A stretch of DNA of 64,000 nt from an uncultured bacterium (GCA_964607485.1 CAZSKP010000024.1:1-64000); one strand, 5' to 3'. Positions 6,494 through 43,823 are shown, counted from the first letter of the stretch. Notes: generated by a model from the sequence alone, not told the origin. Made by a program: numbers and translations.

Positions 6494-6518
6494 CTTTCTC
6501 CTTCGCGATGGCCTCTGC

Positions 6519-8394: not shown

Positions 8395-9747
8395 TCAGGA
8401 AGGGGGACTGGAAGCGACGAACTGTGGTGTCCGAAAGACGAAGTCGCCATGGGTCTCCTTACTCAACGGCGGTTTGGCCTGCATTCCCCCATCGTCCTTC
8501 ATGTTGCCGCCGACGCTGTAGAGCAGGTAACCGTCATCTGTCCTTCTGTAGATGAATTGACCGGTGGAGAACGGGTCGATTAGCGCTTCCTTTGGCATCA
8601 GAGCGGCCAGCTCATCGAGTTTCTCGGGATAAGTTCCACTTTTCAGGAGGTGCAGATGCAGTGCAACGCGTATGATATTCGCGCGCTGAGCTGTCTGTTG
8701 CCGTGTGACTAAGAAAAGGAAATCGGGAATGAGTCCAAATGCCAGTTGTGACAACTCATTCTCCGGAATTTTTTCATTCAATTTCTCGCGATGAATCTCG
8801 GGGTAAGGAGTTTTTGACAACTCGATGATATATCGGCCGAATCTTTGGGTTTCCTGCAAATATCTTCTCTTGAAAAGGCGAAACATCAGATAGTTGCGCA
8901 CTCGTCTCATGGGACAGACAAAGAATTCCACGATTTTTGGTCTGTCAAGTAATTGACGAGAGAAACGGTCATAATAAAGAAAGACCCGTCCACTCTCCTT
9001 TTGATACCTTTTTAGACGGTGGGCAAAGTCCTTCTCAAGTATCTGGTAGAGAGGGACCCTGCGTGACTCAATGTCAATCATTTGACCCAGTAGAGCATTG
9101 CAGACGGCCTCGTCATTCAACTGAGCAAGAAACGACTCCCCACCTTTATAGGCAAGACCCTCAATGGCCATTCCAACAAGTGAGTGAAGAATGATTCCAC
9201 TGTCCGATACGTCGGCAGAGAAACGAAGCAGGTCTGAATATACACGCCCCGCCTCAGCGTACTTCTCGCGCCATACCAGTAATCCTCCCTTGATGACCAT
9301 GATCCGGGCGATCTCGCGAAAACCCGCGAAATAGGGAACATCCTGACCGGAATCAACAATTGGCATCGAACAGAATCTCTGTTGCGTCCCTTTGTGAACA
9401 AGCTCCAGCGCCGGCTCATTCTTCTTGAGGTAACTTTCCACAGCAGGGTCCTCTCGCCGCCATCCGTTTTCCAATACATCGTCGTAACGCTTGAACAATG
9501 ATTCGTTAAAGCCGGAATCATCCAGGACCTCGCACGCTTGCAGATAGTATTTCGCAGCGTTGTCATCCTTAAGCTCTGCCATGACCGATTTCCACGGCTT
9601 TTCGTCCACCTTTTGGCGAAAGCGGGATGGACGGAAATACCAATGGAATGCAACAGTGAACAGGCAAAAGAGAATCAGGATAGAGCAGGCTGTGACTAAG
9701 AACTTTTTCATGCAGAAAGGACTCTTTTCGATAAAATTATTCTCCAT
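8395..9747 (-). CDS. hypothetical membrane-anchored protein with pseudopilin-G-like C-terminal motif
   Basis: 450-aa ORF with an N-terminal TM helix and C-terminal GTYPEKLDEL...DPFSTGQFIYRRTDDGYLLYSVGGNMKDDGG. Confidence 0.65.
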   Translation of the reverse strand: MENNFIEKSPFCMKKFLVTACSILILFCLFTVAFHWYFRPSRFRQKVDEKPWKSVMAELKDDNAAKYYLQACEVLDDSGFNESLFKRYDDVLENGWRREDPAVESYLKKNEPALELVHKGTQQRFCSMPIVDSGQDVPYFAGFREIARIMVIKGGLLVWREKYAEAGRVYSDLLRFSADVSDSGIILHSLVGMAIEGLAYKGGESFLAQLNDEAVCNALLGQMIDIESRRVPLYQILEKDFAHRLKRYQKESGRVFLYYDRFSRQLLDRPKIVEFFVCPMRRVRNYLMFRLFKRRYLQETQRFGRYIIELSKTPYPEIHREKLNEKIPENELSQLAFGLIPDFLFLVTRQQTAQRANIIRVALHLHLLKSGTYPEKLDELAALMPKEALIDPFSTGQFIYRRTDDGYLLYSVGGNMKDDGGMQAKPPLSKETHGDFVFRTPQFVASSPPS

Positions 9748-10037
9748 TTCCTCAACTTATTGTATATCCTGGAGTGCTGCGGAGTCAAGATCCTGAACAA
9801 TGAGAGATTCCAGAGTCAGCAGGTCGAGAGGGGCGACGGATGCAGAAGACCATGAATCGGGAGCATGGCTCCATAAACAAAGGAGCGAAAGATGAGCAGG
9901 GCTTGACACCTTCTTACTGTCTGCAGACTCGTGTTATGTCTGGGAATCTTGATGTTGCCGAACCGTATGGTATATACTCGCGAAAGAGTGAATGTTGTCC
10001 AGAAATTAGGACTGAAGGGAGCCCCGGGAAAGACGTC

Positions 10038-11897
10038 ATGCTTCATGGATACAAAGGGAAACTCTTATGGATTGACCTGTCTAAGGAGACTTCCGCAGCA
10101 ATAGAAATACCCGAAGAGGTTCTCAGGAAATACATAGGAGGACGCGGCCTCGGTGCGAAGCTTTACTGGGACCTCCTTCCGCCGGATGCCGACCCTCTGG
10201 GGCCTGAGAATATCTTCATGGTGCTCACCGGCCCTCTCAGCGGCACCATGGCGCCCGGTGCCGGAAAGCACGTTATTGTGACCAAGTCTCCCGCGACCGG
10301 AGCGTGGTTGGACGCTTATTCGAGCGGACGTGTGGCTCCTGAGATGAAGTTTTCGGGCTACGATGGAATCGTCATAACGGGTAAAGCCAGGAGGCCAATC
10401 TACCTTCTGATTGAAGACAATAAGGTGGAGTTCCGCGATGCGAGTCATCTGTGGGGCAAGGGCGCATTCGCGGCAGAGACATACGTGAGAGAGAATTTTC
10501 ATCCCGATTGCGGCTCGCTCGCCATCGGTCCTGCGGGTGAGAACCTGGTTCATTTTGCCTGCGTGGGGAGTGATTATTTCAGACAAGCCGGTCGGGGTGG
10601 CGCCGGCGCGGTGATGGGGTCCAAGAACCTCAAATTGGTTGCCGTAAAGGGAAGCGGCGGCATAAGCTGCGCGAACATACAAGGCGTACATGACCTCGTG
10701 CTAAAGCATTACAAGACCTATCAGGACAGCCCCGCCGGTTCCGCGCACCGCAGGTATGGCACCCCTCTGACTTTGACCGTCACGCACTCGGCGGGAATGC
10801 TGCCCACGCGCAATTTCCAAAAGGGCCAGTTCGACCCTGGCATCGGCAAAATCGACAAGGACGCCGTGGAGGAAGCCACGATTGCGACCCGCGCATGCTA
10901 TGCCTGCTTTGACTCGTGCGGCAAGTTGACTCGGGTCAAGGATGGTGTTTTCAAAGGACTCACCGTCGAAGGGCCCGAATACGAAACTCTCGCTCTGCTC
11001 GGCAGCAACCTGGAGATAGACTATTTACCGGCAATTATGAGGGGGAACTATCTCTGCGACGACCTGGGAATGGATACCATTTCAGCCGGTGGAGTTATTG
11101 GCTTCGTCATGGAATGTTTCGAGCGCGGTATCCTGACGAAAGAAGATACCGGCGGGTTGGAGCTCAGGTTCGGGAATTATGAGACCGCATTGAAACTGCT
11201 GGAACTCATCGCGCACAGAAAAGGCTTTGGAGATTTCTGCGCCCGCGGAGTCAGGGAGATGGCCAGGGAGCTCGGCAAAGGAACCGAGAACTTCGCCATG
11301 CACTCGAAGGGGCTCGAACTTCCGGCCTATGACCCCCGGGCAGGATGGGGAGCGGCGATAACCTATTCCGTCACCCCAAGAGGTGGCTGTCACCGCCGCG
11401 CCTGGCCCCCTTTGAAGGAAGTGCTCGGAGGAGTGGAGCCCTTTACTACCGAGCAGAAGGCTGAGCTCGTGCGGGAGATGATGCACGAGACGTGCGTGAT
11501 GCACTCGCTCTTGGTCTGCGATGTTCCTCCCAAAACCATTCCCGCCGGCATTCCCGGATTCTGCGAGTATCTCAACCTTGTCACCGGCTTGGACTACTCA
11601 GTGGAGGACTTGATAGACCGCGCGGAAATCATTGAGACGCTCATCCGCCGAATCAATGTCAGGCAAGGAATCACCTCCAGTGAAGATTTCCTGCCAAGAC
11701 GAATATTGGAGGAAGCGCTCTCGAATGGGCCTGCCGAGGGAAAAATCATAGGCACGGAAAATTTTCTCAAGATGCGCTCCGAATACTATTCTCTGCGAGG
11801 CTGGGACAGCGAAGGAGTGCCCACAGCAGAGACCATCGCTAAGTATGGCTTCAATGAAGAGCCGGACTTTGGGGACCGGATAAGGATCGAACATTGA
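10038..11897 (+). CDS. aldehyde:ferredoxin oxidoreductase family (tungsten cofactor)
   Basis: GYKGKLLWIDLS, YIGGRGLG, KSPATG, AGRGGAGAVMGSKNLK, GPEYET, CDDLGMDTIS and YYSLRGWD. Confidence 0.93.
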   Translation: MLHGYKGKLLWIDLSKETSAAIEIPEEVLRKYIGGRGLGAKLYWDLLPPDADPLGPENIFMVLTGPLSGTMAPGAGKHVIVTKSPATGAWLDAYSSGRVAPEMKFSGYDGIVITGKARRPIYLLIEDNKVEFRDASHLWGKGAFAAETYVRENFHPDCGSLAIGPAGENLVHFACVGSDYFRQAGRGGAGAVMGSKNLKLVAVKGSGGISCANIQGVHDLVLKHYKTYQDSPAGSAHRRYGTPLTLTVTHSAGMLPTRNFQKGQFDPGIGKIDKDAVEEATIATRACYACFDSCGKLTRVKDGVFKGLTVEGPEYETLALLGSNLEIDYLPAIMRGNYLCDDLGMDTISAGGVIGFVMECFERGILTKEDTGGLELRFGNYETALKLLELIAHRKGFGDFCARGVREMARELGKGTENFAMHSKGLELPAYDPRAGWGAAITYSVTPRGGCHRRAWPPLKEVLGGVEPFTTEQKAELVREMMHETCVMHSLLVCDVPPKTIPAGIPGFCEYLNLVTGLDYSVEDLIDRAEIIETLIRRINVRQGITSSEDFLPRRILEEALSNGPAEGKIIGTENFLKMRSEYYSLRGWDSEGVPTAETIAKYGFNEEPDFGDRIRIEH

Positions 11898-12175
11898 AAG
11901 TCAACATTTCAATTGTCGGTCTTCTCGAGGGCCTTTTCCCTGAAGGCAAGGGCGTCATCGAAGCGGAAAGCATGACCGTCAGCGGCATATTGGATGCCGT
12001 CGCGGCCAAGTCCGGCAAAGATGCGGCGGGAAAGCTCCGCGGCGACAAAGACCTTCGGGAAGGATTGTCTCTGTTGGTTAATGGACGAAATGTGCTTTCG
12101 TTGCCCGATAAGTTTCAAACGAAATTGCAGGATGGGGATGAGGTAGTTATAACTGTCCAGGTCAGTGGCGGCTGA
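11894..12175 (+). CDS. MoaD/ThiS-family sulfur carrier
   Basis: Ubiquitin-like size, LVNGRNV motif and C-terminal SGG. Confidence 0.85.
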   Translation: MKVNISIVGLLEGLFPEGKGVIEAESMTVSGILDAVAAKSGKDAAGKLRGDKDLREGLSLLVNGRNVLSLPDKFQTKLQDGDEVVITVQVSGG

Positions 12176-12189
12176 AAAGAGACGCGAGC

Positions 12190-12765
12190 ATGGCAAGAGT
12201 ATTGGAGATCGAAGCAGACAAGTGCACGGGGTGCCGGATGTGCGAGCTTGCCTGCTCCAGCATCAAGGAAGGGGAATTTATTCCGGAACACTCCCGGATC
12301 CGAGTCATCGACAATCGACTCGAAGGGTGGTCGAGGCCCACGGTCTGCCTCCAATGCGACGAGCCGATGTGTATGGCTGTCTGTCCGGTCCAAGCTATTT
12401 CAAAGACAAAAACCGTTCAAGGCGATTCGGTCATAGCAGTTGACCCGGAAAAGTGCACCGGTTGCCACAGCTGTCTGGTGGCGTGCCCATTCGGAGCAAT
12501 GAATTTCTTCCCAAAACAGAAAGCCACCAAGTGCGACCTCTGCGATGGTTCACCCAAGTGCGTGGAATTCTGCTTCTATGACTGCTTGCACTTTGTGGAG
12601 CTTTCCGAGCAGGAGAGGACAGACCGAGCCAGGAAATTGAAGGCCTTGACCGTGAAAACGTGTCGAGAAATCAGCAGGCATGAGGTCCTGCGCCGTCGTG
12701 CCGCCTTTTCTCTTCCGGCATCTCAGGTCACACCCTCCCCGTCACCCAAAAGTGACAACGAATGA
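12190..12765 (+). CDS. 4Fe-4S dicluster electron-transfer subunit (AOR partner)
   Basis: Four cysteine clusters: CTGCRMCELAC, CLQC..C...CP, CTGCHSCLVACP and KCDLC. Confidence 0.9.
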   Translation: MARVLEIEADKCTGCRMCELACSSIKEGEFIPEHSRIRVIDNRLEGWSRPTVCLQCDEPMCMAVCPVQAISKTKTVQGDSVIAVDPEKCTGCHSCLVACPFGAMNFFPKQKATKCDLCDGSPKCVEFCFYDCLHFVELSEQERTDRARKLKALTVKTCREISRHEVLRRRAAFSLPASQVTPSPSPKSDNE

Positions 12766-12807
12766 ACTCAATTCTATTTCGATAGCCTGCTTCGGAGACT
12801 ATCGTCA

Positions 12808-13827
12808 ATGACGACATTGATAATCGACGGCCATCGTCACCTCATGTGTCTTGGAGCTCACACCCTCGCCAGTCAACTGGACCCGGCAAAAGCGAATTCT
12901 ATGGCGGGCGTCAACCAGGCTTCCGCCATGGTCAACATGGAGAGAGCGCCGACATGGGTGCGCAAGATGACGGATTTCGACGAGCATGTCGCCGACCTCA
13001 ATTCGGCGGGCATAGATATCGGCGTTGCCTGGCCTCCTCCTCCGGGATTCTACTACTGGGCAGAGCCTTCTGCCGGCGTCGAATTGTCCCGAATGGTGAA
13101 TGAGAACACCGCAAGTGTGACTCGGTCAAAGCGTAATCGTCTTGTAGGACTGGCCTCAGTACCTCTCCAGGACGTCGGCCGTGCCATCGAAGAGTTAAAA
13201 TATGCCGTGCAAACCTTGGGGCTCAGCGGGGTGGCCATCGCATCCAATGTAAACGGACGTGGCCTTGATGAAGAACAGTTCCTTCCATTCTTTGAGCAGG
13301 CGGAGCTGCTGGACGTGCCGGTCTTTATCCATCCCGATGTTCCTCTTGAGTCTGAGCGGATGAGTAGCTGTTACCTCGTAAACTTTCTGGGTTATCCATT
13401 GGATTCGACAGTGGCGGCATCTCATTTGGTTTTCGGAGGTGTTCTCGACCGTTACCCAAATTTGAAAATCTGCCTGGTTCATGCGGGCGGAGTCTTGCCC
13501 TTCCTGCTCGGTCGCCTTGAGCATGGACAATCAGTCCGTCCCGAGGCGCGGGAAAGATGCGAGCACCCTTTTCCCCACTACTTGAAGAACTTTTATGTGG
13601 ACAGCGTAACGTTTCGCGTAGAGATCCTTCGCTTCGTACTCACCGTAATGCCACGGGGCCATGTATTCATGGGTACGGACTATCCCTTCGATATGGCCGA
13701 TCCCGATCCCGTATCCACGGTGACATCGGCGGCGGAAGATGACCGGGCCATGCTCGAAGAGGTACTCGGTGGAAATCTCCGGCGTCTATTGAAACTTCCA
13801 GGAGATTCTTCAAACCCCGTGCGTTAA
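12808..13827 (+). CDS. amidohydrolase-2 family protein (ACMSD-like decarboxylase)
   Basis: IDGHRH, VPVFIHP, HAGGVLPF and GTDYPFD. Confidence 0.85.
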   Translation: MTTLIIDGHRHLMCLGAHTLASQLDPAKANSMAGVNQASAMVNMERAPTWVRKMTDFDEHVADLNSAGIDIGVAWPPPPGFYYWAEPSAGVELSRMVNENTASVTRSKRNRLVGLASVPLQDVGRAIEELKYAVQTLGLSGVAIASNVNGRGLDEEQFLPFFEQAELLDVPVFIHPDVPLESERMSSCYLVNFLGYPLDSTVAASHLVFGGVLDRYPNLKICLVHAGGVLPFLLGRLEHGQSVRPEARERCEHPFPHYLKNFYVDSVTFRVEILRFVLTVMPRGHVFMGTDYPFDMADPDPVSTVTSAAEDDRAMLEEVLGGNLRRLLKLPGDSSNPVR

Positions 13828-13981
13828 CGCCAGCCATTTGTTGGAAGGAATTCTGTGACCAAATAAGTACAATTTTCGCCCCTACCCATTGGAACCTCAA
13901 AGAGACAATTGACACATGATCGGGGCGGGGGTCCATCCCGGCTGAATCCGGTTCGGTTGCGCGCAGACGGCGCCCGGTAAG

Positions 13982-14923
13982 CTATTCTTTCGCACCGGCC
14001 TGTTCGAGCATGTCCGCGATCTGGGGATGCTTTGCGAATTTCGCAACTTTGAGTGCCGTCATGCTGTATGCGCCAACCGCATCCACGTCGGCCTCATGGT
14101 CTAACAAAGTCCTGACGATGTCGATGTGCCCTCTATATGCGGCGGCCATCAGAGCGGTGTTGCCGTCGTCATTCCTCAAATTCACATCGGCTCCCCTGTT
14201 CAGGAGCGTCTCAACGATGGCTTCGCGGCCTGCGAAAGCGGCTATCGTCAGTGCCGGTGTGCCATCGGTCGATTGCGCGTTAGGATCCTCTCCCTTGTCG
14301 AGCAAGGCCTTAACGATATCCTCGTGGCCAAGGTCTGACGCTATCATCAGCGCCGTCATACCCAGCCCTGCGTTTCTTATGCCTGTGTCGGCCCCGCCAT
14401 CCAGGAGGGCCGTCACGACCGCAGTGTGGCCCGCCCTTGTGGCATACATCAAGGCCGTCTCGCCCAAGACATTGTCCTTTGCATTCAAATCGGCGTCGTT
14501 GTCCAGCAGGATTTGCACGATGCCGGTATGACCATGCCCTGCCGAAGCCATTAACGCCGTGGCGCCAAGATTGTTTGTCGAGTTCACGTCAGCGCCGCTG
14601 TTCAGCAGAGCCTTCACAACCTCGGCGTGGCCATTCAGCGCCGCATACGAAAGCGCTGTCACACTGCCTCTGCTTTTCGCATTCGGGTCCATCCCCGCGG
14701 CCAAAAACAATTCCACCACCTTAAGGTTCCCCTGTTCTGCACTTCTCAGGAATTGTTCCGAGGTATACGCGATTTTCAATCGCTCCAATTCCCGGCCTGC
14801 AGCACTCTCGCCCTCGCTCAATTGTGGCGACTCTTCGCCTAGATCTCTTTCGGGACTCTTGGAACACGCTGCATGAGAGAACAGCAGGGCAAAGGCCAAG
14901 ACCACGGTCAAGATGAATGGCAC
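13982..14923 (-). CDS. ankyrin-repeat lipoprotein
   Basis: About 7 ankyrin repeats (GxTALMxAA.GH..IV..LL..GADVN); AAGGAGG SD before GTG at 14923; signal peptide ending in HAAC lipobox. Confidence 0.85.
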   Translation of the reverse strand: MPFILTVVLAFALLFSHAACSKSPERDLGEESPQLSEGESAAGRELERLKIAYTSEQFLRSAEQGNLKVVELFLAAGMDPNAKSRGSVTALSYAALNGHAEVVKALLNSGADVNSTNNLGATALMASAGHGHTGIVQILLDNDADLNAKDNVLGETALMYATRAGHTAVVTALLDGGADTGIRNAGLGMTALMIASDLGHEDIVKALLDKGEDPNAQSTDGTPALTIAAFAGREAIVETLLNRGADVNLRNDDGNTALMAAAYRGHIDIVRTLLDHEADVDAVGAYSMTALKVAKFAKHPQIADMLEQAGAKE

Positions 14924-15355
14924 GGCGTTAAGCCTCCTTGCGCAGGCATCCGGGAACAGTAAACCTGAGACAGGTAGCTGTTCAGAGAGTATCGCAGGGC
15001 AAAGGCGGAGCGCAATGGAGCGCTCACGGCCCATGGCAACATTGAAATTCATCGATATGGATAATGGTCGGCCAGTCATTGTTTCAAGACCTCTTTCTTC
15101 ATGCGGAAGTATACATCATCAGGGCATCGCCTTTCCAACAGCTTCATGATGGCAGTCGGCATTGTAGCACTCCACGAAACCGCTGATATCGCCTGCTTCA
15201 ACTCTTCGTAGCCCGCACAGGCTCTTTGGGCCAAGCTCAGGGGATAACCGCGAAACTTAAAATCCTATTCAACAACATTCCGGATCTTCTTTAAGAAAAC
15301 GAATAATGTCATCCGTTCCCTCTCAACAAGAACGCCTCAAACATCTTCATTATAG

Positions 15356-34869: not shown

Positions 34870-34943
34870 GCGCCCGTAGCTCAGGCGGATAGAGCAGCGG
34901 TTTCCTAAACCGCGGGTCGGGAGTTCGAGTCTCCCCGGGCGCT
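34870..34943 (+). tRNA. tRNA-Arg(CCT), integration target
   Basis: Acceptor stem GCGCCCG/CGGGCGC, anticodon arm GCGGT-TT-CCT-AA-ACCGC and T-arm GGGAG-TTCGAGT-CTCCC. Confidence 0.95.
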
Positions 34944-34946
34944 CTC
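34899..34946 (+). repeat. attL, 48-bp direct repeat (3' half of tRNA-Arg)
   Basis: GGTTTCCTAAACCGCGGGTCGGGAGTTCGAGTCTCCCCGGGCGCTCTC, identical at 43733-43780. Confidence 0.95.
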
Positions 34947-34960
34947 ATTTTTTGCCCGTT

Positions 34961-36136
34961 TTATGGGCTTTGTTGAGCGCGCCGGAGTTCCTTCTTGAAG
35001 GGCAAAATGTTGGGTAGGGCAGTTGCTATGGCAGTTGTCGGCATGGCGTCCAGATATTCCGCCTGTCTTTCCGCAGCCTCTCTCAGGTCCGCCTCCGAGA
35101 CGATGTTGTAGCGGTCAAAGATCGACCGGGTCTTGTGGCCGGAAACCTGCATGGCCACGCGCTCCGGGATTCCCGCCCTGACCATGTTCCTGATAGCGGT
35201 CCGCCTGAAGTCGTGAAACAGCCGGTCGCCGACTCCCGCCTTCCTACAGGCCGTTCTCCAGGTTTTCCCGAACTGTTTTATGCGGTCGGTTCCGCGCTCG
35301 TTCTGAAAGACGAAAGCCCTCGGGTCGCCCTTACCGCGCCCGCACTCTCCCAAGAACAAATCTCTCAGAAGGTCGTAAAGCTCGTGGTCCAGCGCAAGCG
35401 TCCGGCCTTCGTCGTTTTTGCTCTTGCCCGGGCTCAGCGTAACCGTCCGTTGAATCAAATCAACGTGGTCCCAGGTGAGCGATGCGATCTCTTCCCGGCG
35501 CCAACCTGTGCGATAGGCGAACGTGACAAGTCCCCGTAGATATTCCGGGAGGGCGTTCCTGAGCGCCAGGAACTCATGATGCTCAAAGAACCCCGTCCGT
35601 GGGCTGCTCTCTCGAAGCATCGGAAAATGCGGGAGCCGGTCCACCTTCGGCGGCGTGCAGTTCCTGCCCAAGTTGAGCATTCTCTTGAGTGCGGCGAGCT
35701 CGCGGTTGATTGTGCTGTCCTTCACCTTCCTCTCGCCGTTCTTATCTCCCTGTTCGTGCCGTTCGCTCTGGCGAGCCTCGATGTAGGCCTTCAGGCGCAT
35801 CGTGTCGATTTTGCAGGCCCGGACCCCTTTGAAATGTCTCTTGAGGTTGGCCACGTGTTGACGGGCCCGCCGCGAGCTCTTCTTGTTCTTCATGTCTGCG
35901 AGGTAGAGCTCCGCGAGCTCCTCGAATGTCGTCTTGTCGAAGTAGTAGCCCGGGAGCCTGCCCTGAGCCACTTCCGCCTTGCGCTGAGTGAGAAGCTTCT
36001 GAGCGTCCGTCTTTCTCGTGCTCTTTGAGTTTTCCCGGATGCGCCGCCCCTCTGAGAAATAGACAATCCACCACGTCTGGCCTTCTCGATATTCGCCGGT
36101 TTTCCTGTCACGGTACTTCGGTTTGTACACTCCCAT
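34961..36136 (-). CDS. int: tyrosine recombinase / phage integrase
   Basis: Catalytic TGWRREE, K (SKNDEGR), FHDFRRT, GHKT...DRY; N-terminal arm-binding domain. Confidence 0.95.
   Translation of the reverse strand: MGVYKPKYRDRKTGEYREGQTWWIVYFSEGRRIRENSKSTRKTDAQKLLTQRKAEVAQGRLPGYYFDKTTFEELAELYLADMKNKKSSRRARQHVANLKRHFKGVRACKIDTMRLKAYIEARQSERHEQGDKNGERKVKDSTINRELAALKRMLNLGRNCTPPKVDRLPHFPMLRESSPRTGFFEHHEFLALRNALPEYLRGLVTFAYRTGWRREEIASLTWDHVDLIQRTVTLSPGKSKNDEGRTLALDHELYDLLRDLFLGECGRGKGDPRAFVFQNERGTDRIKQFGKTWRTACRKAGVGDRLFHDFRRTAIRNMVRAGIPERVAMQVSGHKTRSIFDRYNIVSEADLREAAERQAEYLDAMPTTAIATALPNILPFKKELRRAQQSP
35013..35036. repeat. putative integrase arm-type sites (tandem 12-mers) inside the 3' end of int
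   Basis: GGTAGGGCAGTT GCTATGGCAGTT; matching pair at 43590-43613. Confidence 0.6.
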
Positions 36137-36434
36137 GCTTTGATTTCCCCTCGCCGATTAACAGCGCCAACTCACCGGGCCTTCTTCGCCCGCTCGAGCG
36201 CAGGGCGACAAATCTCAGGATGTTGTCGAGCTCGTAGATAAACTTTTTGGAACTCAACCGCGAAGGTCTGAGGATATCGTTGATATCCGGGTCCGAGCGC
36301 CATTGCCGGAGCGTTTCTGTCGATACCCGAAGTAATGCGGCCGCCTCGCCCTGGTCCAAGAACCGTGGCAGCTCCTTCAGTTCCCTCTTGCTTGGCTTTC
36401 CTACGGCTCTCATTCCTTTCCTCGGAGTCCTCAT
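36108..36434 (-). CDS. excisionase-like winged-HTH protein
   Basis: FLDQGEAAALLRVSTETLRQWR (MerR/HTH_17-like); overlaps the int start. Confidence 0.7.
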   Translation of the reverse strand: MRTPRKGMRAVGKPSKRELKELPRFLDQGEAAALLRVSTETLRQWRSDPDINDILRPSRLSSKKFIYELDNILRFVALRSSGRRRPGELALLIGEGKSKHGSVQTEVP

Positions 36435-36446
36435 TCCATCACCCCC

Positions 36447-36749
36447 TCAGCACCAAAAGGGAAACTGCTCGCGAAATTTCTCCAGGTTGATCGGCCGGCC
36501 GGCGATGGTATCCGCGATCGCGCAGACACGGTAAAGGATTATCGCCGGAAAGTGCTCCCGGTCAAAAGCGAGTTTATACTCTGCTCTCTTTCCCCGTCCG
36601 ACCCGAAACAGTCCTTGTTGTTTCGGGTCCCATACGAGGTCCCCGGGCTTCACTTCCGCCGCCCTGTCCAGAATCAGTGCTGGCTGATTGTTGCCGTCCC
36701 CACTGACGTAGACGTAATCCAGCCGTCCGTCTCGTTGTTTCTTTTTCAT
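36447..36749 (-). CDS. hypothetical protein (first gene after the structured leader)
   Basis: 100-aa ORF with GGAGGG SD region, co-oriented with xis-int. Confidence 0.6.
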   Translation of the reverse strand: MKKKQRDGRLDYVYVSGDGNNQPALILDRAAEVKPGDLVWDPKQQGLFRVGRGKRAEYKLAFDREHFPAIILYRVCAIADTIAGRPINLEKFREQFPFWC

Positions 36750-36765
36750 CTCTCATCCCTCCATG

Positions 36766-36908
36766 AAAAAAGCCCGTTCGGGCGGGGATGGTGAGTCACG
36801 ATGTCGCGAGCGGCATACGTGAAACGCCCCGACAGAACGGGCAAAGGTTTCTGTTGGCCAAAAACAGAAAAGGCCGCGTCGCTTTCATCATCGTGACTCA
36901 CCGGGGAT
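36766..36908 (-). ncRNA. structured leader RNA resembling C4/CI-type antisense attenuators
   Basis: 14-bp perfect complementarity 36790-36803/36889-36902, 8-bp stem 36772-36779/36835-36842, and terminator GCCC-GAAC-GGGC-U6. Confidence 0.55.
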
Positions 36909-36938
36909 AGTGTAGCAGCCGGCGGGCAGCCCTGTCAA
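36909..36938 (-). promoter_or_regulatory. sigma-70 promoter for the leader-ORF-xis-int transcript
   Basis: TTGACA-18bp-TACACT on the minus strand. Confidence 0.6.
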
Positions 36939-37065
36939 GGGAAAAATGCAGCCGGACTCTAAAAATCCTTGTAGCATCCCAAGAAGCTCCAGGACGCCCT
37001 GAGAGAGGCAAAGGCGGTGTGAGCGGTATCATAGAGGTTCAGCTCCGGGTTCTCACAGGGAAGCC

Positions 37066-37449
37066 TCAGCCAGCGTGGTTGTCCGTTGGATTTGGAGGTC
37101 TCTCCAGGTCCTGCTCCGCCCGGTCAACATAGTCGGCGCACATGTCGCAGATTTTCCCGCCCATTATCCAAGCCGCCCCGGACGGCTTCTTCCCGAAGAC
37201 CTCCAGCACCGTTTCGGTAATCAGGTTCCAAAGGTCAGCTATCCCGGCGATGACTCTGCTTTGCGCCTTCTCTGCGGAATGCGCTTTCTTGGCGTACGTC
37301 TCGAGCTCGGAGAAATACCAATCCATGAGCGCTTCCACTTCTCCCCGGAGCTCCGCCTTTTCCTCTTTTGAGAGAGGATATCGAGGGAGATAGTCTCTTG
37401 CCAGCTCCTCCAGGGTGCGGCGAAACTTTTTCTTCGCTTTTCTGTTCAT
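37066..37449 (-). CDS. hypothetical helical protein coupled to the tape-measure gene
   Basis: ATG overlaps the TMP stop (ATGA); 127 aa starting MNRKAKKKFRRTLEEL. Confidence 0.6.
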   Translation of the reverse strand: MNRKAKKKFRRTLEELARDYLPRYPLSKEEKAELRGEVEALMDWYFSELETYAKKAHSAEKAQSRVIAGIADLWNLITETVLEVFGKKPSGAAWIMGGKICDMCADYVDRAEQDLERPPNPTDNHAG

Positions 37450-39212
37450 CTCAGGATGCCCCGCCGCCGGCCGCGTTCGATCGCAGGGAGGAACTCGTCG
37501 CGCATGAGCCGCCGCCATGACTGTTGTTGCTCCGGCGCCGTGCCCGGGAAATGGAAATGATTGACCATGCCCCCGCCGCCTGCCGCCGCCACGCTCAACT
37601 GGAGTGGCGAGACGTTCATGCTCGAGATGAACGCGTCGTACTCCCTGCGCATCGCCTTGAGGCCTGTCGTCCAGTTTTCCAGCGGGCTGGGGGACTTTCC
37701 CGTGAGCGGGTTCAGCCAATCGAATGCCTTCGCCGCTCCCGCGATGATTGCCCCGATGGTGCGATTCCACAAGTCTCTGATATAGTCCGTGAAGGACCTC
37801 CACAGGCCTTTCAGCCGCTCCCACGACGAGGAGAGGAAGTCCTTGATCTCGCCCCATCCGTCCATGAACGGCCAGTACACGTAATTCCAGAACCCGAGCT
37901 CTATCTCCGTCCACAGCCTGTCGAGCCCTTCCTTGATGTCCTCCCAGTAGATAATTGTGGTCGCGATGATGGTTCCCCACAGCGCGATCCCCGCCGCGAC
38001 CGCTGCAATGATGCCCGCTGTCGTGACGCCGATCGTTGCGACCACCGCTGCGAGCGTTGACACCACCACCAACGCCGGTCCGATGATGGCGACGATCCCC
38101 ACTATTGCAAGGACTATCGCCTGAACGTTGGGGGAGAGCTCTGTGAACCAGTCCACAACCTTCCCTATGTACTCGATCAACTTCTCCAGGCCCGGTTTCA
38201 TTTTGTCGAACATGTCCAAGAGCTTGTCGCCGAGCGGCTCCAGGGCCGACATGAGCCTGTTCTTCAGCTCCCTCATGCGCCGGGAGAAATTGTCCGTGTC
38301 CTCATAGGTCCGATTGATTGTCTCCTGGCTGTTCTTCAGAGAGTTCAGGAGCTCGTCTATCGCGAACCGCCCCTCGCGGATCGCCGCCGCCATGTCGGGC
38401 CCGGCCCGGGCGCCGAACATCTCCAGCGCTTTCGCGTTCGCCTCCCCGACGGAGCCGGCCCGCTCGATGTCCGTGAGAAGGTCTTTGAATGCCTGCGCCG
38501 GCTCGCCGCCCGCCTGGGCTATTTGCGTGAGCGCCTGGCGGAGGCCTCCGAGCACGAGCTCCGTGTTGACGCCTTCCTTCTCCCACTTTCCCATGAGCGC
38601 CGCCGCTTCCTCGAAGCTGTAGCCGACCTGTCTGAGCGGCGCGCCGTATTGAACGAGCTTGCGCGAGAGGTCCTCGACGGAGATTCCGGTCTGCTGGCTG
38701 ACTTTGTGCAGGTAGTCGAGCGCCCCGGCCTGGTCGTCGGTCGTGATGCTCCAGTCGCCGAACAGCCGTGTGACGGCCGCGATGAGGCTCTTCACGTTGC
38801 CGCCGCCGATCTCCTGCAGCTTGAGAAACTGTGAGGAGAGCTTCTGGAGCGGCTCGCCCGAGAGGCCGAGTCGGGTGTTCAGGTCCGCGATCGCCGTCGC
38901 CACGTCGTCCGTGATAGAGGGGAGCCTCGTGAAGACAGCCTTGAAATCTTCGTCCAACTTCTTCAGCGCCTCGCCCGTGGCGCCTGTGCCGGCGCGTATC
39001 TTGTTCATGGCCTGGTCAAACCTATCCGCGCTCGCGGCGGCCGCCGCGCCGATGCCGAGGATGGGGACGGTTAGCAGCGCCGAGAGCTTCGTGCCGACGT
39101 TCCGAAAATTCTGGCTCATCTTGTTCAGGTCTTTCTCGATTTGCTTCACGGCGCGCTGAAAGCCCGTCGTGTCCGCGCCGATGACGGTTATCAACGATCT
39201 GAGGGTTGCCAT
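37446..39212 (-). CDS. phage tail tape measure protein (TP901-like core), short at 588 aa
   Basis: N-terminal LITVIGADTTGF, core FDQAMNKIRAGTGATGEAL...GYSFEEAAALMGKWEKEG, TM segment, Trp-periodic repeats and SPSP motif. Confidence 0.85.
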   Translation of the reverse strand: MATLRSLITVIGADTTGFQRAVKQIEKDLNKMSQNFRNVGTKLSALLTVPILGIGAAAAASADRFDQAMNKIRAGTGATGEALKKLDEDFKAVFTRLPSITDDVATAIADLNTRLGLSGEPLQKLSSQFLKLQEIGGGNVKSLIAAVTRLFGDWSITTDDQAGALDYLHKVSQQTGISVEDLSRKLVQYGAPLRQVGYSFEEAAALMGKWEKEGVNTELVLGGLRQALTQIAQAGGEPAQAFKDLLTDIERAGSVGEANAKALEMFGARAGPDMAAAIREGRFAIDELLNSLKNSQETINRTYEDTDNFSRRMRELKNRLMSALEPLGDKLLDMFDKMKPGLEKLIEYIGKVVDWFTELSPNVQAIVLAIVGIVAIIGPALVVVSTLAAVVATIGVTTAGIIAAVAAGIALWGTIIATTIIYWEDIKEGLDRLWTEIELGFWNYVYWPFMDGWGEIKDFLSSSWERLKGLWRSFTDYIRDLWNRTIGAIIAGAAKAFDWLNPLTGKSPSPLENWTTGLKAMRREYDAFISSMNVSPLQLSVAAAGGGGMVNHFHFPGTAPEQQQSWRRLMRDEFLPAIERGRRRGILR

Positions 39213-39241
39213 CGCTTTTTTTCCTTAGTTCCCCGCAAGAT

Positions 39242-39301
39242 GCGGCGGCCGGGAAAGGAGGCCCCCTGCCTGATTGAGGGCGAAAACAGCCCGGCCGCCG
39301 C
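39242..39301. repeat. 12-bp perfect inverted repeat between the decoration-like and TMP genes
   Basis: GCGGCGGCCGGG (39242-39253) and CCCGGCCGCCGC (39290-39301). Confidence 0.8.
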
Positions 39302-39334
39302 GCCTGCGGTCAACGGAGGTTGTTGTGGACCCGG

Positions 39335-40036
39335 CTATATCGACGCGCTGGCTCCCACCTTTTGGGTGACGCCTTCCCGAGGATCCCCTCGAAGGAGCAT
39401 CGCCGATACGACCGAATTCGCTGTAGTCGTGACTTTGCACGCGATGTGAGTGAATCCGTTCTCATGGTCCAGGGCGTGGCCGTCGAGCTCGACGTAGGCC
39501 TGGGCCTTCGTGGTCGCGAGTGTGATCGTTCCCGCATTCTCCGTCTTGTCCGTCGTGATGACCGTGGCGCCCGGGTTCGTGCTCACCAACGTCACGAGAG
39601 TTCCGTTGGCCGACGCCGTGACACCCGGAGCGCCGTAGGTGGCGTGATTGACGCAGGTCACGAGCCCGGCCGCGTCGGCGAACTCACGGGCCGTTGCGTC
39701 CGTGGCCGCAGCCTTCGTGAAGTCGATTCCGTTGATGGTGACCACGTCGGTGTTGGCCACAGATGCGAGCTCCACGGTGGCCTCTGTCACCAGCGTATTC
39801 GCTGTCACCGTGGCCGAAGCGCTCGTGATAGCCTTCGCGTCTGTCGCCTCTGCGTCCTTTGCCTGGAGCAGCTCGATCTTCGTTGTCTTCGTCGCGGCCA
39901 TTGCGCCGCCGTTCAAGAGCGCCAACGCTTTGCGGAACGGGCGCATGTCGTAGTAAGGCCCCGTCGCGTTGGTGTTATTCAGGGCCTGTGAGACAAGCCC
40001 GATGTCCATCTTTGCACCTTCGTAGAGTTTCTGCAT
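39335..40036 (-). CDS. virion structural protein, probable capsid decoration/cement protein
   Basis: Directly after the MCP with AGGAGG SD; Thr/Ala-rich beta composition; inserted Ig-like segment DVVTINGIDFT...VTASANGTLVTL. Confidence 0.55.
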   Translation of the reverse strand: MQKLYEGAKMDIGLVSQALNNTNATGPYYDMRPFRKALALLNGGAMAATKTTKIELLQAKDAEATDAKAITSASATVTANTLVTEATVELASVANTDVVTINGIDFTKAAATDATAREFADAAGLVTCVNHATYGAPGVTASANGTLVTLVSTNPGATVITTDKTENAGTITLATTKAQAYVELDGHALDHENGFTHIACKVTTTANSVVSAMLLRGDPREGVTQKVGASASI

Positions 40037-40059
40037 TTTCAGACCTCCTGTCCCGGCAC

Positions 40060-41349
40060 CTATGCCGGGATGATTCCCGTGATAACGTTCAAGTGGGCCG
40101 GTCTCAGCACCGCCACGTCCACCCGGAGGTAGCCGCGGACCAGCACCTGCATCTTCTCAAACGTCTTCTCGTCGCCCGCCTTCGACACGTCCAATTGCAG
40201 CTGCGTCCGCATCCCGAACAGTAGGTTTTTGAAGCCTCCCATGAATGCGGAGCTCGCGTTGGTTGCCGAGCCCTGCGTCTGATCTATGGGCACCTGGTTG
40301 GTGACCAGCCGCTTGAGCGCGAGAAAATCGTCCGGAGGCTTGAGAGGTGTGTTGTCGCTAGTAATTCCGGTTTTCAAGCCGGCCAGGGCGCGCTTGGTCC
40401 GCGGCGCGTAGATGACCGCGGTAGCCTCCCCGTTGCTCGTCTCGATGTCCTCTATGGCGTCCAGGAACGGGTCGTAGTTTGTGAAGGCGGCGCCGTTCGT
40501 GCCCATCGAAACGGAGCCGACGCCGTCAGTGTTCCAAATGCCGCGAGGCTCTCCGACGCCCGAGCCGAGAAGACCGACGCGGTCAACCTCGAGCGCGAGA
40601 GCCGAGGCGATCATCTCTTCAAGTGTCCCGGTGAAGGATTGCACGTCCTCGATGAGCTGCAGCGAGACCCGGCAGAGGCAGGCGACGGCTACCGCGACCA
40701 GCTTGATCGGTGTGAACGTGGCGTCCGACTCGGTGATCTCTTCGTTTTCGGCGACCCAGTACGGCGTCGGCTCGGTGACCACCTTCGCGATCGTGACTTC
40801 CGGGGTCTCCATCGGCAGGGTCAGTGCCCCCGCCTGGACGCACCGCGCCTTGTTACGCGCCAGGTCGATGATGGTCCCGCTCAAGGTCGTCGGAAGCAGC
40901 ACCCCGCCCAGGGCGCCCGTGCCTTCTCCCATAGCCCGCCGCTCTGCCTCGGCCCCTTTCCAATCCTTCAGGACAAGTCCGCGAAACGCCCGGCCCAGGT
41001 TGAGCTCACTGGGAAGGATTCCATCGGGCAGGTCGCTCCGGACGAAATCTATCATCCGCTCTTCGGGCCTGAGCAGCCAGCGCCTGTCTCTATCCTCCAA
41101 GCCGTGAGAGCCGGCGCCGTCAATGATACGGCTGCCTATGTCGGTCCGCTGCGAGAGCGCGTCAACCGAATTGAGCCGGGTGGCGTCATCGAGGCGCTGC
41201 TTCAAGTCGCCCACCTCTTCCTCCAATGTGTCGAACTCCCTGCGTTCCGCCGCCGTGAGCGTGCGGTTCTCCTTCTCTGCCGCTTCTCGGATTGCCTTCA
41301 TTCGCGCGATCTTTTCCTCGCGCTGCTTCATCAATTCTCGTAGGTCCAT
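40060..41349 (-). CDS. HK97-fold major capsid protein with N-terminal coiled-coil delta (scaffold) domain
   Basis: Charged coiled-coil N-terminus, GGVLLP...IIDLAR, WVAENEEITES...F, VSLQLIED, GSGVGEPRGI and C-terminal RVDVAVLRP. Confidence 0.9.
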   Translation of the reverse strand: MDLRELMKQREEKIARMKAIREAAEKENRTLTAAERREFDTLEEEVGDLKQRLDDATRLNSVDALSQRTDIGSRIIDGAGSHGLEDRDRRWLLRPEERMIDFVRSDLPDGILPSELNLGRAFRGLVLKDWKGAEAERRAMGEGTGALGGVLLPTTLSGTIIDLARNKARCVQAGALTLPMETPEVTIAKVVTEPTPYWVAENEEITESDATFTPIKLVAVAVACLCRVSLQLIEDVQSFTGTLEEMIASALALEVDRVGLLGSGVGEPRGIWNTDGVGSVSMGTNGAAFTNYDPFLDAIEDIETSNGEATAVIYAPRTKRALAGLKTGITSDNTPLKPPDDFLALKRLVTNQVPIDQTQGSATNASSAFMGGFKNLLFGMRTQLQLDVSKAGDEKTFEKMQVLVRGYLRVDVAVLRPAHLNVITGIIPA

Positions 41350-41421
41350 TTCTTGTTTCCTTTCCTCTTTTTTTCCGTTCCGGTTGCGCGGGCAGAGGAG
41401 CGATCCCGCTCCGCGTTGTGG

Positions 41422-41712
41422 TCATCCGACCAGGGACGCACCCTGTTCTCTTGCACGTTTCGCTTTTCGCCGATCTCTCCATCGGCGGTGTTGGGCTTTG
41501 ACGTTTCCCTTCCGGCCTCGGCGTGGTGAGACACCCTGCCGATCAGTCCAACATTCATGAGAGCAGAACCGTCGCTTTTCCTGATAGAGCGGAACGCTGT
41601 AGGACCGGCCGCACTGTTCGCATATCTTTGTCAGGCGACGGCCATTGAACCGCAGACGGTCCGGTTCCCTCGATTGATGCCGCCAACGGCAACCCATCAT
41701 TTTCTTCTCCAT
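41422..41712 (-). CDS. small basic C4 zinc-finger protein
   Basis: CEQCGRSY...RRFCSHEC motif. Confidence 0.55.
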   Translation of the reverse strand: MEKKMMGCRWRHQSREPDRLRFNGRRLTKICEQCGRSYSVPLYQEKRRFCSHECWTDRQGVSPRRGRKGNVKAQHRRWRDRRKAKRAREQGASLVG

Positions 41713-41840
41713 TTGCAGACGTATGCAAAGTCAAACCTCGCCCAGGGGGGGGCTATTGCAATTTCGCGGCATCTTGCGGAAGCCTGCCATACCGGTTTCA
41801 GAGCTCAGAGGCTCCAGTGATTTTCTGCCCCCTCCCCTTG

Positions 41841-42476
41841 TCACGTCGGAACCTCCGACAATCTCTCCACTTCGCCTTCCGCTTCGGCCAACTGCCTCAC
41901 CGTTTCTTGATAGCCGCGGTTCGATTCAGGGGCGCCCAGGTGCCGGAGTGTCTCGAGAGAGCGTTTCAGGCGCGCCACCTTTTCCTGCGGTTTTTCTTCT
42001 TCGGCGGTTGACCCGCCCTGAGTTCCCTTCCGAGTTAAATTAGGAGTTAGGGGCCCACCGGCTAGCCCCCCGGTTCGTGCATCCCTTAGCCCCCCGCTAC
42101 CTCTCCGTTGTACCCCCGCACGCGGACGCGGAGGTCTATCGGTTGTATCCCCGCCTACACCTTGCGGGGGGCTACTGCCTGCACCCCCGCTCGCATGAGT
42201 CCATTGAATGATGATGTGATAGCCGCCCAGTCTCCGGGGACGTGGATAGCGCTCGATGATTCCCAAGGTTTCGAGTTCCCGCACCGCTTTGTGGTAAGAT
42301 GCCTTGTGCTTGATTCCGGCCTCTGTCTGCAAGGTTCTGGCACTTGGGAAACACTCGTTGCTCTCCCGATTCATGAAGACGCCGATCGCAATGAGGAGCC
42401 TGAGCGTGGCCGGCCTCTGTATCTCGGGGAGTCTTTCGACAACAAACGACGGGAGCACAGAGGTACCTCTGTCCAT
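41841..42476 (-). CDS. phage replication-initiator-like protein (N-terminal winged HTH)
   Basis: CFPSARTLQTEAG...KAVRELETLGIIER...Y (HTH_36-like), followed by a low-complexity linker encoded by GC repeats. Confidence 0.65.
   Translation of the reverse strand: MDRGTSVLPSFVVERLPEIQRPATLRLLIAIGVFMNRESNECFPSARTLQTEAGIKHKASYHKAVRELETLGIIERYPRPRRLGGYHIIIQWTHASGGAGSSPPQGVGGDTTDRPPRPRAGVQRRGSGGLRDARTGGLAGGPLTPNLTRKGTQGGSTAEEEKPQEKVARLKRSLETLRHLGAPESNRGYQETVRQLAEAEGEVERLSEVPT
42063..42190. repeat. iteron-like repeats inside the rep gene
   Basis: TAGCCCCCCG, TAGCCCCCCGC, TGTACCCCCGC, TGTATCCCCGC, inverted GCGGGGGGCTA and TGCACCCCCGC. Confidence 0.55.
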
Positions 42477-42667
42477 TACCTGCCTCTCTTCGGCTGCCGC
42501 TGCTTCCGAGGAACATACACGGCAGACCCGAGCTCCACGTTGTCGTGGCGTATGATGATCTTAGTCGACGTCGTCACGACGACGGTCTCTCCCGCCTCCA
42601 AAACTCTTTCTATGAAGCGAAAGTCTTCCTCCGCCTCCGTCAATTCTTTCCCCCCCTCCTCACGCAT
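42476..42667 (-). CDS. small hypothetical protein
   Basis: 63-aa ORF abutting the rep start and overlapping the upstream HTH gene. Confidence 0.45.
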   Translation of the reverse strand: MREEGGKELTEAEEDFRFIERVLEAGETVVVTTSTKIIIRHDNVELGSAVYVPRKQRQPKRGR

Positions 42668-42864
42668 CGGTCTATGAAATCCTGGAGGTCCTCATTTCGG
42701 ACGTACTGCTTCCGTGAGCCCGGGAACACCACTACGGGAAGATGCCCGCTCCACACGTGCTTGCGGAGCGATCGCAGCGGGCAGCCTATGAGCGCCGCCG
42801 CCTCCGCGAGCGTGTAGCAGAAGCGCTTTCTAGGCTCTGGACTCTCCTTCAACTCGTCGGTCAT
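42640..42864 (-). CDS. HTH_17/excisionase-type DNA-binding protein (AlpA/Xis-like)
   Basis: YTLAEAAALIGCPLRSLRKHVWSGHLP...VRNEDLQDFI; ATGA overlap with the upstream gene. Confidence 0.75.
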   Translation of the reverse strand: MTDELKESPEPRKRFCYTLAEAAALIGCPLRSLRKHVWSGHLPVVVFPGSRKQYVRNEDLQDFIDRCVRRGGKN

Positions 42865-43436
42865 CTATCTGTGGCCATTTTCAAGATTGTTATGAGGATT
42901 GGACCCCATTGCTCTCTGAGTTTCATCCGCCGGGCCGGTTCCTCAAATTTCTTCTTTTCCTCTTCTGCCAGCCACGCCGACTGGTTCGGCCCATACACCT
43001 TCTCAGCTTCCCTCCAGAGGGTTGAATCTACTCCGTAGAGCTCCTCTTCCAAGTCCAGCTTTAGACGGAGCCATTTTAAAGCCGCGAAGGCAACCAGATC
43101 CTGGTTCTTCACAAGCCTCTTGAGAGTTCGGTCATTTTGGAGCGATTCTTCGTCCAGCGCGATATCCGGTCTTTCCAGATGTTTTGCGATCGCTCTCGCC
43201 CTTGCGACGCCTTCCGCAGAGAGTCCGTCCTCGTTCAACAAACGAAAAGACGCCCCCACCTCCGCCGCCATATTGAAGGGATAGCTTGCTTCCATTGCAC
43301 GTCCGCCGCCTTTGCGAACCTGACGCGGCGCCAACCCCTTTTTCCAGTAATTCCGTAGTGTGGCCGGGCCTATTTCTATCGGGTGCTTCAGCGACTTGAG
43401 CTCCTTGAGTACCTCGCTTAGGGCTTTCTGGCTCAT
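42861..43436 (-). CDS. MerR-like HTH regulator (probable element repressor)
   Basis: IGPATLRNYWKKGLAP...GGG...Y; AGGAGG SD and a consensus promoter upstream. Confidence 0.6.
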   Translation of the reverse strand: MSQKALSEVLKELKSLKHPIEIGPATLRNYWKKGLAPRQVRKGGGRAMEASYPFNMAAEVGASFRLLNEDGLSAEGVARARAIAKHLERPDIALDEESLQNDRTLKRLVKNQDLVAFAALKWLRLKLDLEEELYGVDSTLWREAEKVYGPNQSAWLAEEEKKKFEEPARRMKLREQWGPILITILKMATDR

Positions 43437-43477
43437 TGGCTCCTCCTTCAGAAAACTATCAATCTATCTTTCATAGT

Positions 43478-43506
43478 ATTATACAATCGAGTCTTCATTC
43501 TGTCAA
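43478..43506 (-). promoter_or_regulatory. perfect-consensus sigma-70 promoter driving the element's main operon
   Basis: TTGACA-17bp-TATAAT on the minus strand. Confidence 0.8.
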
Positions 43507-43589
43507 GTCCTCGCTACTGCCAGCGGGTGAGAACAACAGCACGTCGCCCGGGCGCCATGGCTCAAATAAGAGCGAATCCCAAGTCTTTT

Positions 43590-43613
43590 GCTAGGGCAGT
43601 TGGTAGGGCACGA
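43590..43613. repeat. putative integrase arm-type sites near attR
   Basis: GCTAGGGCAGTT GGTAGGGCACGA, same orientation as 35013-35036. Confidence 0.6.
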
Positions 43614-43688
43614 AGCGGAGAACACAAGCGGAAAAAAGGCTGTCAAATCAGGTCACAAGAGGACACATACAAGAAATCTTATAAAGGA

Positions 43689-43717
43689 TTGCAAACCCTT
43701 GACACGTCGTATATAAT
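43689..43717 (+). promoter_or_regulatory. element-borne promoter firing outward through attR
   Basis: TTGCAA-17bp-TATAAT. Confidence 0.55.
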
Positions 43718-43732
43718 GAGACCCGCGGTTCA

Positions 43733-43780
43733 GGTTTCCTAAACCGCGGGTCGGGAGTTCGAGTCTCCCCGGGCGCTCTC
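43733..43780 (+). repeat. attR, 48-bp direct repeat (displaced tRNA-Arg 3' half)
   Basis: Identical to 34899-34946. Confidence 0.95.
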
Positions 43781-43823
43781 GTTTTTTCCGGCCTTGGAGC
43801 TCAGGCACGGATGCGCAGGCGTT

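Follow-up and report, generated by a model that had tools for sequence, protein, structure and literature searches.

The classical staphylococcal phage-inducible chromosomal island (PICI) SaPIbov5 encodes Ccm, a homologue of the major capsid protein (MCP) that builds small capsids with helper parts, and the remaining gene content of SaPIbov5 is different from that of the element described below. The EPIPs (Extracellular Prophage-Inducing Particles) of Mycolicibacterium aichiense, of about 11 kb, encode a small terminase subunit (TerS), an adaptor, a stopper, a serine integrase, a scaffold, an MCP and a tape measure protein (TMP), and they show smaller heads and altered tails, in which a role of their own TMP has been proposed (PMC12822802). 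For the PICI-like elements (PLEs), the available part of the source describes experiments in which the PLE TMP replaces the helper TMP in chimeric tails, escaping the TMP-targeting inhibitor of the PLE itself (PMC11838301). Among the 'twilight-zone' mini genomes, one has an open reading frame (ORF) annotated as tape measure, according to the accessible text (PMC13669383). We have analysed 64,000 nt of DNA from an uncultured bacterium (GCA_964607485.1 CAZSKP010000024.1:1-64000; this whole stretch is called the window), which holds an 8.8-kb element that lies at a tRNA gene and encodes both an MCP and a TMP. On balance, from its genes and relatives, we consider this element to be an integrated and probably still mobile phage satellite belonging to a lineage of 8.5-11 kb elements in tRNA or tmRNA genes of several phyla, whose hallmark is an own HK97-type MCP followed by a partner protein, here called O7. 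A preliminary description of this DNA had held that an MCP plus a TMP fits no known satellite. The claim of a first satellite with capsid and TMP no longer holds, because EPIPs encode both proteins and, as far as the available texts go, PLEs use their own TMP and genomes of about 8.75 kb with integrase and MCP have been published.

The element is delimited by a direct repeat that is exact over 48 nt (34899-34946 and 43733-43780) and occurs twice in the window, compared with zero copies expected from 100 shuffles. With one mismatch allowed, the match reaches 55 nt. The copies have a spacing of 8,834 bp, which agrees with the two intact att repeats and the circle size given earlier. Between the repeats, all 12 credible genes (O1 to O12 in transcription order, Table 1) are intact ORFs on the minus strand, and several of their junctions overlap. 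The gene families were searched in Pfam, PHROGs and NCBIfam. Together with ORF, sequence and promoter scans, these searches bear out what the preliminary description had read from the DNA, namely 12 co-oriented ORFs with an ATGA overlap and a second promoter, encoding an HK97 MCP, a TMP, a replication protein (Rep), a zinc finger, a helix-turn-helix (HTH) protein, an excisionase (Xis) and an integrase (Int). The same family searches gave no terminase, portal, protease, connector, tail tube or lysis family among the element proteins. In addition, tblastn of 237 proteins from 17 related loci against the whole window showed no packaging or tail genes and no pseudogene traces; only Int, MCP and O7 were matched, besides chance, antisense and host-kinase matches. 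The earlier observation that the element has no terminase, portal, protease, tail tube or lysis gene is therefore upheld. Two of the earlier labels fared less well: the name 'MerR-like' for O1 is weakly founded, as PF00376 stays under its cut-off (E=0.06) and an atlas search gave only a lead, to a cluster with MerR_1 in 64% of its members, and the name 'decoration-like' for O7 had its basis in gene position and was not confirmed.

The related loci were obtained by scanning species-representative genomes with an O7 alignment, which gave 17 loci (L001 to L017) from 352 pattern matches. Each of the 17 has an MCP gene with the O7 homologue immediately downstream of it. Eight of them (L001, L004, L005, L011, L013, L015, L016 and L017) are canonical phage head modules with the order (HNH)-TerS-large terminase subunit (TerL)-portal-protease-MCP-O7-connectors, followed by tail tube genes where the contig is long enough. 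Six others (L002, L003, L006, L008, L010 and L014) carry, beside MCP-O7, an integrase and in most cases also a replication gene, and neither TerL nor portal was found in them on the DNA available. L012 and L007 resemble the capsid-forming PICIs (cf-PICIs), with the order Rep-HNH-TerL ... MCP-O7-protease-portal-int, and L009 is a fragment in which MCP-O7 is followed by a Pycsar system and then a tRNA. Contig ends cut five of these nine small loci (L002, L006, L007, L009 and L014), and perfect repeats delimit three small elements, L003 (10,156 bp, at tRNA-Pro), L008 (9,106 bp) and L010 (8,563 bp, at tmRNA). A protease is carried by L014, L012 and L007. The slot between O7 and the integrase or element end varies: it is occupied by protease and portal in L012 and L007, by an ERCC4 nuclease and a Panacea-domain gene in L003, by Pycsar in L009, by a capP-like gene in L006, and by small genes without known family in L002, L008 and L010. 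In a tree of 16 full-length MCPs, from which L002 and L009 were omitted as their MCPs are cut by the contig end, the MCPs of eight small or cf-PICI-like elements, including that of the window, form one clade (support 100/98) apart from the eight phage-module MCPs. The window element thus shows what defines the lineage, which is an MCP of the small-element clade followed by O7, an integrase, and an att-bounded length of about 8.5-11 kb at a tRNA or tmRNA gene. Judged from gene content, the recurrent unit is int, rep, MCP and O7, and the TMP and O9 are accessory genes of the window member.

Several of these loci have features of their own. The Pycsar pair of L009, from a metagenome-assembled genome (MAG) of Bdellovibrionales, is complete (1503-3006, minus strand; PycC 1.4e-33, PycTM/2TM effector 2.3e-41), and it stands directly after the O7 homologue (758-1462), with a tRNA-Asp at 3211-3287, apparently inside the element as a satellite-borne defence. 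In L010, the end of a second integrase gene (4004-5326) coincides exactly with the left att repeat of the tmRNA element of 8.6 kb (5281-13871), which suggests two islands in tandem at one tmRNA site. Iteron-like arrays of 21-24-nt repeats occur in or beside the replication genes of L003 (6983-7165), L006 (6478-6585) and L012 (3708-3833) and are probably origins. The gene right after O7 in L001 (6429-6734), L005 (10749-11030) and L015 (10742-11137) matches the 'Arc-like repressor' phrog_6480, down to 2e-16; this is an odd label inside a head module, and in the small elements the corresponding place is taken by small ORFs unrelated to this gene.

The profile of the window MCP (O6) matches the head protein of 80-alpha, the capsid protein of RcGTA and gp5 of HK97, in the last case (1.8e-13) over the scaffolding delta domain as well. 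PF05065 is its sole capsid family in Pfam, where no encapsulin domain was found. Its closest non-self relatives are about 51% identical (181 matches among 8,000 scored candidates), and for 8 of the 12 best non-self matches the longest contigs measure 7.8-13.1 kb. Among 50,697 phage records, 45 matched the MCP and none exceeded 25% identity. These results bear on whether the element is a recent phage deletion remnant. By comparison of its genes it is not, because its closest homologues are not in full prophages, as seen both in the MCP clade and in the phage database, and neither gene fragments nor disrupted ORFs were seen. In this point, the search for full prophages as closest homologues agrees with the preliminary description, in which the element was not taken for such a remnant.

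O7 is more conserved than the MCP, since the 120 listed of its 351 homologues are 54-74% identical, compared with about 51% for the best MCP match. The listed relatives come from MAGs labelled Archaeoglobus, Spirochaetes, Dehalococcoides, Hydrogenedentes and Thermoanaerobacteraceae. The closest homologue (74%) is that of L001, in a bacterial-type module TerS-TerL-portal-ClpP-MCP-O7 on a 7.5-kb contig from a MAG labelled Archaeoglobus sp.; the archaeal label is either a binning artefact or reflects a phage of another host. The AlphaFold2 model of O7, built with 42 sequences, is confident and all-beta (pLDDT 95.7). Foldseek gave only weak matches in the PDB, to a Bas63 baseplate chain (TMq 0.32-0.39) and TNF-like lectins, and in BFVD it gave, at TMt 0.59-0.69, unnamed proteins of 130-160 aa from uncultured tailed phages; PDB sequences searched by profile gave no match. 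Considering that O7 is a normal head-module gene of a phage group, as the eight phage modules show, it fits a capsid accessory role. From its position we infer that O7 may be a decoration or cement protein; the name is positional, as the fold and profile searches gave no named match. The middle domain of O7 (residues 83-177) aligns at 45-47% identity with part of a 295-aa protein encoded at L004:11433-12320, two genes downstream of the O7 homologue, which suggests that this domain is a shuffled surface domain. With its confident yet unmatched fold, O7 is a good subject for structural studies of capsid accessory proteins, and in practice it can serve as a marker when such elements are sought.

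For 114 of the 120 homologues listed, the alignment with the TMP (O8) begins at the first TMP residue. With 588 aa versus a median of 716 aa, the TMP is short within its family, members of 594-666 aa align with it over nearly their whole length, and hydropathy shows the hydrophobic stretch usual for the family at about residues 365-420. Its best relatives are phage-type TMPs at 46% identity, many from Bacillota, and in the phage database 424 records matched, with a best identity of 37%. The best of these, MT836305.1 (11.2 kb), was considered as a further mini-element and rejected, as it appears, by its ORF layout alone, to be an ordinary-phage fragment with the TMP running off the contig end. 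The third-position GC content (GC3) of the MCP (0.80), O7 (0.79) and the TMP (0.85) lies above that of the other element genes, and because this high GC3 is common to all three, the TMP is not obviously a recent import. Matches to the MCP and O7 are often on contigs of equal size; by eye, none of the 120 listed TMP matches shares its contig size with listed MCP or O7 contigs. The MCP and O7 of the window are present as 100% matches in the protein collection and its TMP is not, though it falls within the searched length range; a different gene call in the source is a possible cause. O9 is predicted to be helical, with four helices in a single-sequence AlphaFold2 model of low confidence (pLDDT 61).

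A helper-dependent satellite is, from these sequence comparisons, the most likely reading, and the following course can be proposed for it. Upon induction of, or infection by, a helper siphophage whose head is HK97-like, the element would excise through Int and Xis as a circle of 8,834 bp and replicate through O4. Its own MCP, with O7, would assemble on the helper portal. The delta-like domain in the MCP implies maturation by a prohead protease, and because the MCP keeps this domain and the element has no protease, we propose that the helper protease would mature the element MCP. The helper terminase would package the element DNA, and the helper would supply terminase, portal, protease, connectors, tail tube, tip and lysis functions. 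The capsid could be small, as a monomer of 8,834 bp would fit a T=4 shell; in the accessible text of PMC13669383, about 10 kbp is projected for an HK97-fold T=4 shell, and P4 holds 11.6 kb in a T=4 capsid. The element TMP could be built into helper tail parts, giving a chimeric tail of about 94 nm (588 aa x 1.6 Å per residue, the value quoted for PLE and ICP1 in the available part of PMC11838301). By analogy, we infer for the TMP a possible function as a replacement of the tail ruler, and O9 might, speculatively, be a TMP helper or chaperone or an inhibitor of the helper TMP. For the lineage, we tentatively suggest, at less than even chances, that it consists of satellites of at most 10 kb in tRNA or tmRNA genes, distributed over at least seven phyla by MAG labels, which keep only the MCP and O7 as head genes and take the rest from helpers. 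Its members would add single virion genes modularly (TerS, protease, portal with TerL, and here TMP), and the window member would customise the siphophage head and tail core with three structural genes, without a packaging-specificity gene of its own.

Several results weigh against a mobile satellite of this kind. No TerS or other packaging-specificity gene was found in the element, and the closest complete relatives have TerS (clear in L003, weak in L010). There is no tail-assembly chaperone gene upstream of the TMP. A convincing iteron-like origin was not found in the element, unlike in L003, L006 and L012, and no helper prophage was found in the 64-kb window. Among 1.84 billion representatives, O9 has no homologue other than itself. 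No TMP was found in the nine related small loci (by tblastn, and by Pfam and PHROGs on selected ORFs), of which five are cut by contig ends. The recurrent 'MCP and TMP only' type that had been proposed is thus not supported; the recurrent core is int, rep, MCP and O7. For the same reason, there is no sign of selection keeping the TMP in the lineage. Finally, since the best non-self MCP is only 51% identical, comparison does not allow recent activity of the element to be judged.

Some of these points would suit a decayed cf-PICI-like element or prophage that has ceased to be packaged after the loss of its terminase, portal and protease, with MCP, O7 and TMP as leftovers still without stop codons. 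The MCPs nearest by identity (L012 and L007, 49-51%) are in elements that still have HNH, TerL, protease and portal, and the missing TerS, the orphan O9 and a TMP unique among its relatives are in line with such a loss. However, all 12 ORFs are intact with several overlapping junctions, the att repeat is exact over 48 nt, and tblastn against the window found no gene fragments of the missing functions. Similarly reduced att-bounded elements in other phyla (L003, L008 and L010) also argue against decay, and derivation from a phage needs three separate clean deletions. We therefore consider decay unlikely.

The satellite reading assigns the TMP to the element's own virion. The TMP and O9 could instead be interference cargo, either as a decoy TMP or as a TMP-targeting factor with a resistant TMP, that spoils the tails of a helper or competitor. 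The variable slot after O7, which holds Pycsar in L009, the Panacea-domain gene with the ERCC4 nuclease in L003 and the capP-like gene in L006, points in this direction, as does PLE11, for which the accessible part of the source describes the TMP-targeting inhibitor Rta together with a resistant TMP of its own (PMC11838301); the nearest relatives of the element TMP come from phages, and their contigs differ in size from those of the MCP and O7 relatives. On the other hand, no PADLOC model matches O9, and the TMP gave only sub-threshold coiled-coil matches there. The TMP is of full length with the usual hydrophobic stretch and shares its codon composition with the MCP and O7, and the same slot holds the virion genes for protease and portal in L012 and L007. 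Accordingly, interference seems quite improbable to us. An autonomous miniature HK97-fold virus, with its 8.8-kb genome packaged and delivered without portal or terminase, as has been raised for the 'twilight-zone' mini genomes, can be largely discounted: published genomes of about 8.75 kb encode integrase, Xis, Rep and MCP and no terminase, portal or tail, and non-canonical packaging is discussed for them (PMC13669383, in the accessible text), whereas a TMP makes sense only with a tail tube and portal, relatives in the clade with TerS (L003 and L010) or TerL and portal (L012 and L007) point to canonical packaging, and the MCP matches PF05065 with no encapsulin domain.

The features of the element are collected in Table 1. 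Promoter-like sites are more frequent in the element region than expected (6 versus 1.9). No match to the AlpA family itself was obtained for O2 in the family searches. For O5, the atlas search gave only leads, to small zinc-finger clusters, and the reading of O5 as a degenerate HNH was rejected, as it has no similarity to the HNH of L012. Just inside both element ends lies a 24-nt motif with the core TAGGGCAGTTG (35010-35033 and 43587-43610 in the window; copies 83% identical), of which the right-end copy is also a 12-nt tandem of 1.9 copies; these end motifs may be arm-type binding sites of the integrase. The flanks in the window are those of an ordinary anaerobe chromosome, with FlpD, aldehyde:ferredoxin oxidoreductase, ComEC, SppA, Obg, ProB and others, and contain no prophage. 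A 365-aa protein consisting nearly entirely of ankyrin repeats is encoded beside a tRNA-Leu (13982-15079, minus strand).

Table 1. Features of the element and its integration site, with positions counted from the first letter of the window.
Feature	Position	Strand	Evidence
tRNA-Arg(CCT), integration target, with the left att repeat as its 3' part	34870..34944	+	ARAGORN; Rfam RF00005, 63.4 bits
attL direct repeat (48 nt exact, 55 nt with 1 mismatch)	34899..34953	+	repeat search, shuffles
O12, 391 aa, tyrosine integrase	34961..36136	-	PF00589 2.3e-22; phrog_1 1e-54
O11, 108 aa, Xis-like HTH protein, overlaps int start	36108..36434	-	phrog_66 excisionase/regulator 7e-6; HTH_17/MerR weak, under cut-off
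O10, 100 aa, no family; first sizeable gene of the int-proximal operon	36447..36749	-	no match in Pfam, PHROGs, NCBIfam, PADLOC
Promoter-like site, TTGACA-18-TACACT with TG, 10/12 positions, ahead of O10/xis/int	36909..36938	-	promoter scan
O9, 127-aa orphan, translationally coupled to TMP	37066..37449	-	O9 ATG overlaps TMP stop as ATGA
O8, 588 aa, TP901-type TMP	37446..39212	-	PF10145 2.6e-14; PF20155; TIGR01760 2e-22; phrog_991 8e-61
O7, 233 aa, all-beta MCP partner, probable head accessory protein	39335..40036	-	position after MCP; no named family
O6, 429 aa, HK97-type MCP with N-terminal delta-like domain	40060..41349	-	PF05065 1.9e-31; TIGR01554 1.5e-43; phrog_10
O5, 96 aa, Cys4 zinc ribbon and basic tail	41422..41712	-	weak zf-FCS; weak matches to C-terminal (Zn-ribbon) parts of HNH PHROGs
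O4, 211 aa, replication initiator-like (HTH_36)	41841..42476	-	PF13730 5.3e-7; phrog_270 replication initiator 6.4e-8
O3, 63-aa ORF, no family	42476..42667	-	no match in Pfam, PHROGs, NCBIfam
O2, 74 aa, HTH_17/excisionase-family DNA-binding protein, AlpA-like position	42640..42864	-	PF12728 6.5e-7 (30 bits vs cut-off 27)
O1, 191 aa, first gene, possible MerR-like regulator	42861..43436	-	PF00376 E=0.06, under curated cut-off
Promoter-like site, consensus sigma-70, TTGACA-17-TATAAT, 12/12 consensus positions, ahead of O1	43478..43506	-	promoter scan
attR direct repeat	43733..43787	+	repeat search, shuffles

The lineage-level picture of MCP and O7, and O7 itself, are worth follow-up. If the element is active, the gene sets of satellites would form a continuum from full head and packaging modules (L012 and L007) through MCP, O7 and TerS to MCP and O7 alone, to which single tail genes can be added. 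Satellites that encode a TMP would then be represented in an uncultured anaerobe too, besides the PLEs of Vibrio and the EPIPs of mycobacteria. Our literature searches brought up neither the MCP and O7 lineage nor an element that combines MCP, O7 and TMP and has no TerS, and supplements of the compared papers could hold such cases; PMC11364771 (Tai) mentions TMPs in its reference list only.

Among the described systems, the EPIPs resemble the window element as small satellites (about 11 kb versus 8.8 kb here) with an MCP and a TMP and without TerL, portal, tail tube or lysis genes (PMC12822802). By that description they are set apart by their serine integrase, compared with a tyrosine recombinase here, and by TerS, head-to-tail adaptor, stopper and scaffolding protein, none of which was found in the element, where the delta-like domain of the MCP is the sole scaffold candidate. 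The PLEs of Vibrio cholerae share a satellite-encoded TMP of nearly equal length (582 aa versus 588 aa). According to the part of the source available (PMC11838301), however, PLEs add a tail assembly chaperone and a baseplate hub, neither of which was found here, and they combine the capsid protein of the lytic myophage that they parasitise with a scaffold of their own, whereas the window element has its own MCP. As far as the accessible text goes (10.1101/2022.09.08.507074), cf-PICIs share with the element the integrase, an HTH protein at the AlpA position, rep and their own HK97-type MCP, and their MCPs likewise form clades apart from phage MCPs. On the other hand, cf-PICIs carry a full head and packaging set (protease, portal, connectors, HNH, TerS and TerL), of which the element has none, and they have no tail genes, whereas a TMP is present here. 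The 'twilight-zone' mini HK97 genomes, by what is available of their description (Aguilar et al. 2026, PMC13669383), are alike in size (about 8.75 kb, below 11.6 kb), in integrase, excisionase and Rep, in an HK97-fold MCP as nearly the sole structural gene, and in the absence of terminase and portal. The dominant group of about 8.75 kb comes from the human gut and has encapsulin Pfam domains in its MCP, in contrast to the plain PF05065 with O7 in the window, and the window element, unlike these genomes, is seen integrated in a chromosome. In summary, judged by its gene set, the element misses the defining features of cf-PICIs, EPIPs and PLEs, and it fits the general description of the mini genomes, outside their encapsulin-like group.

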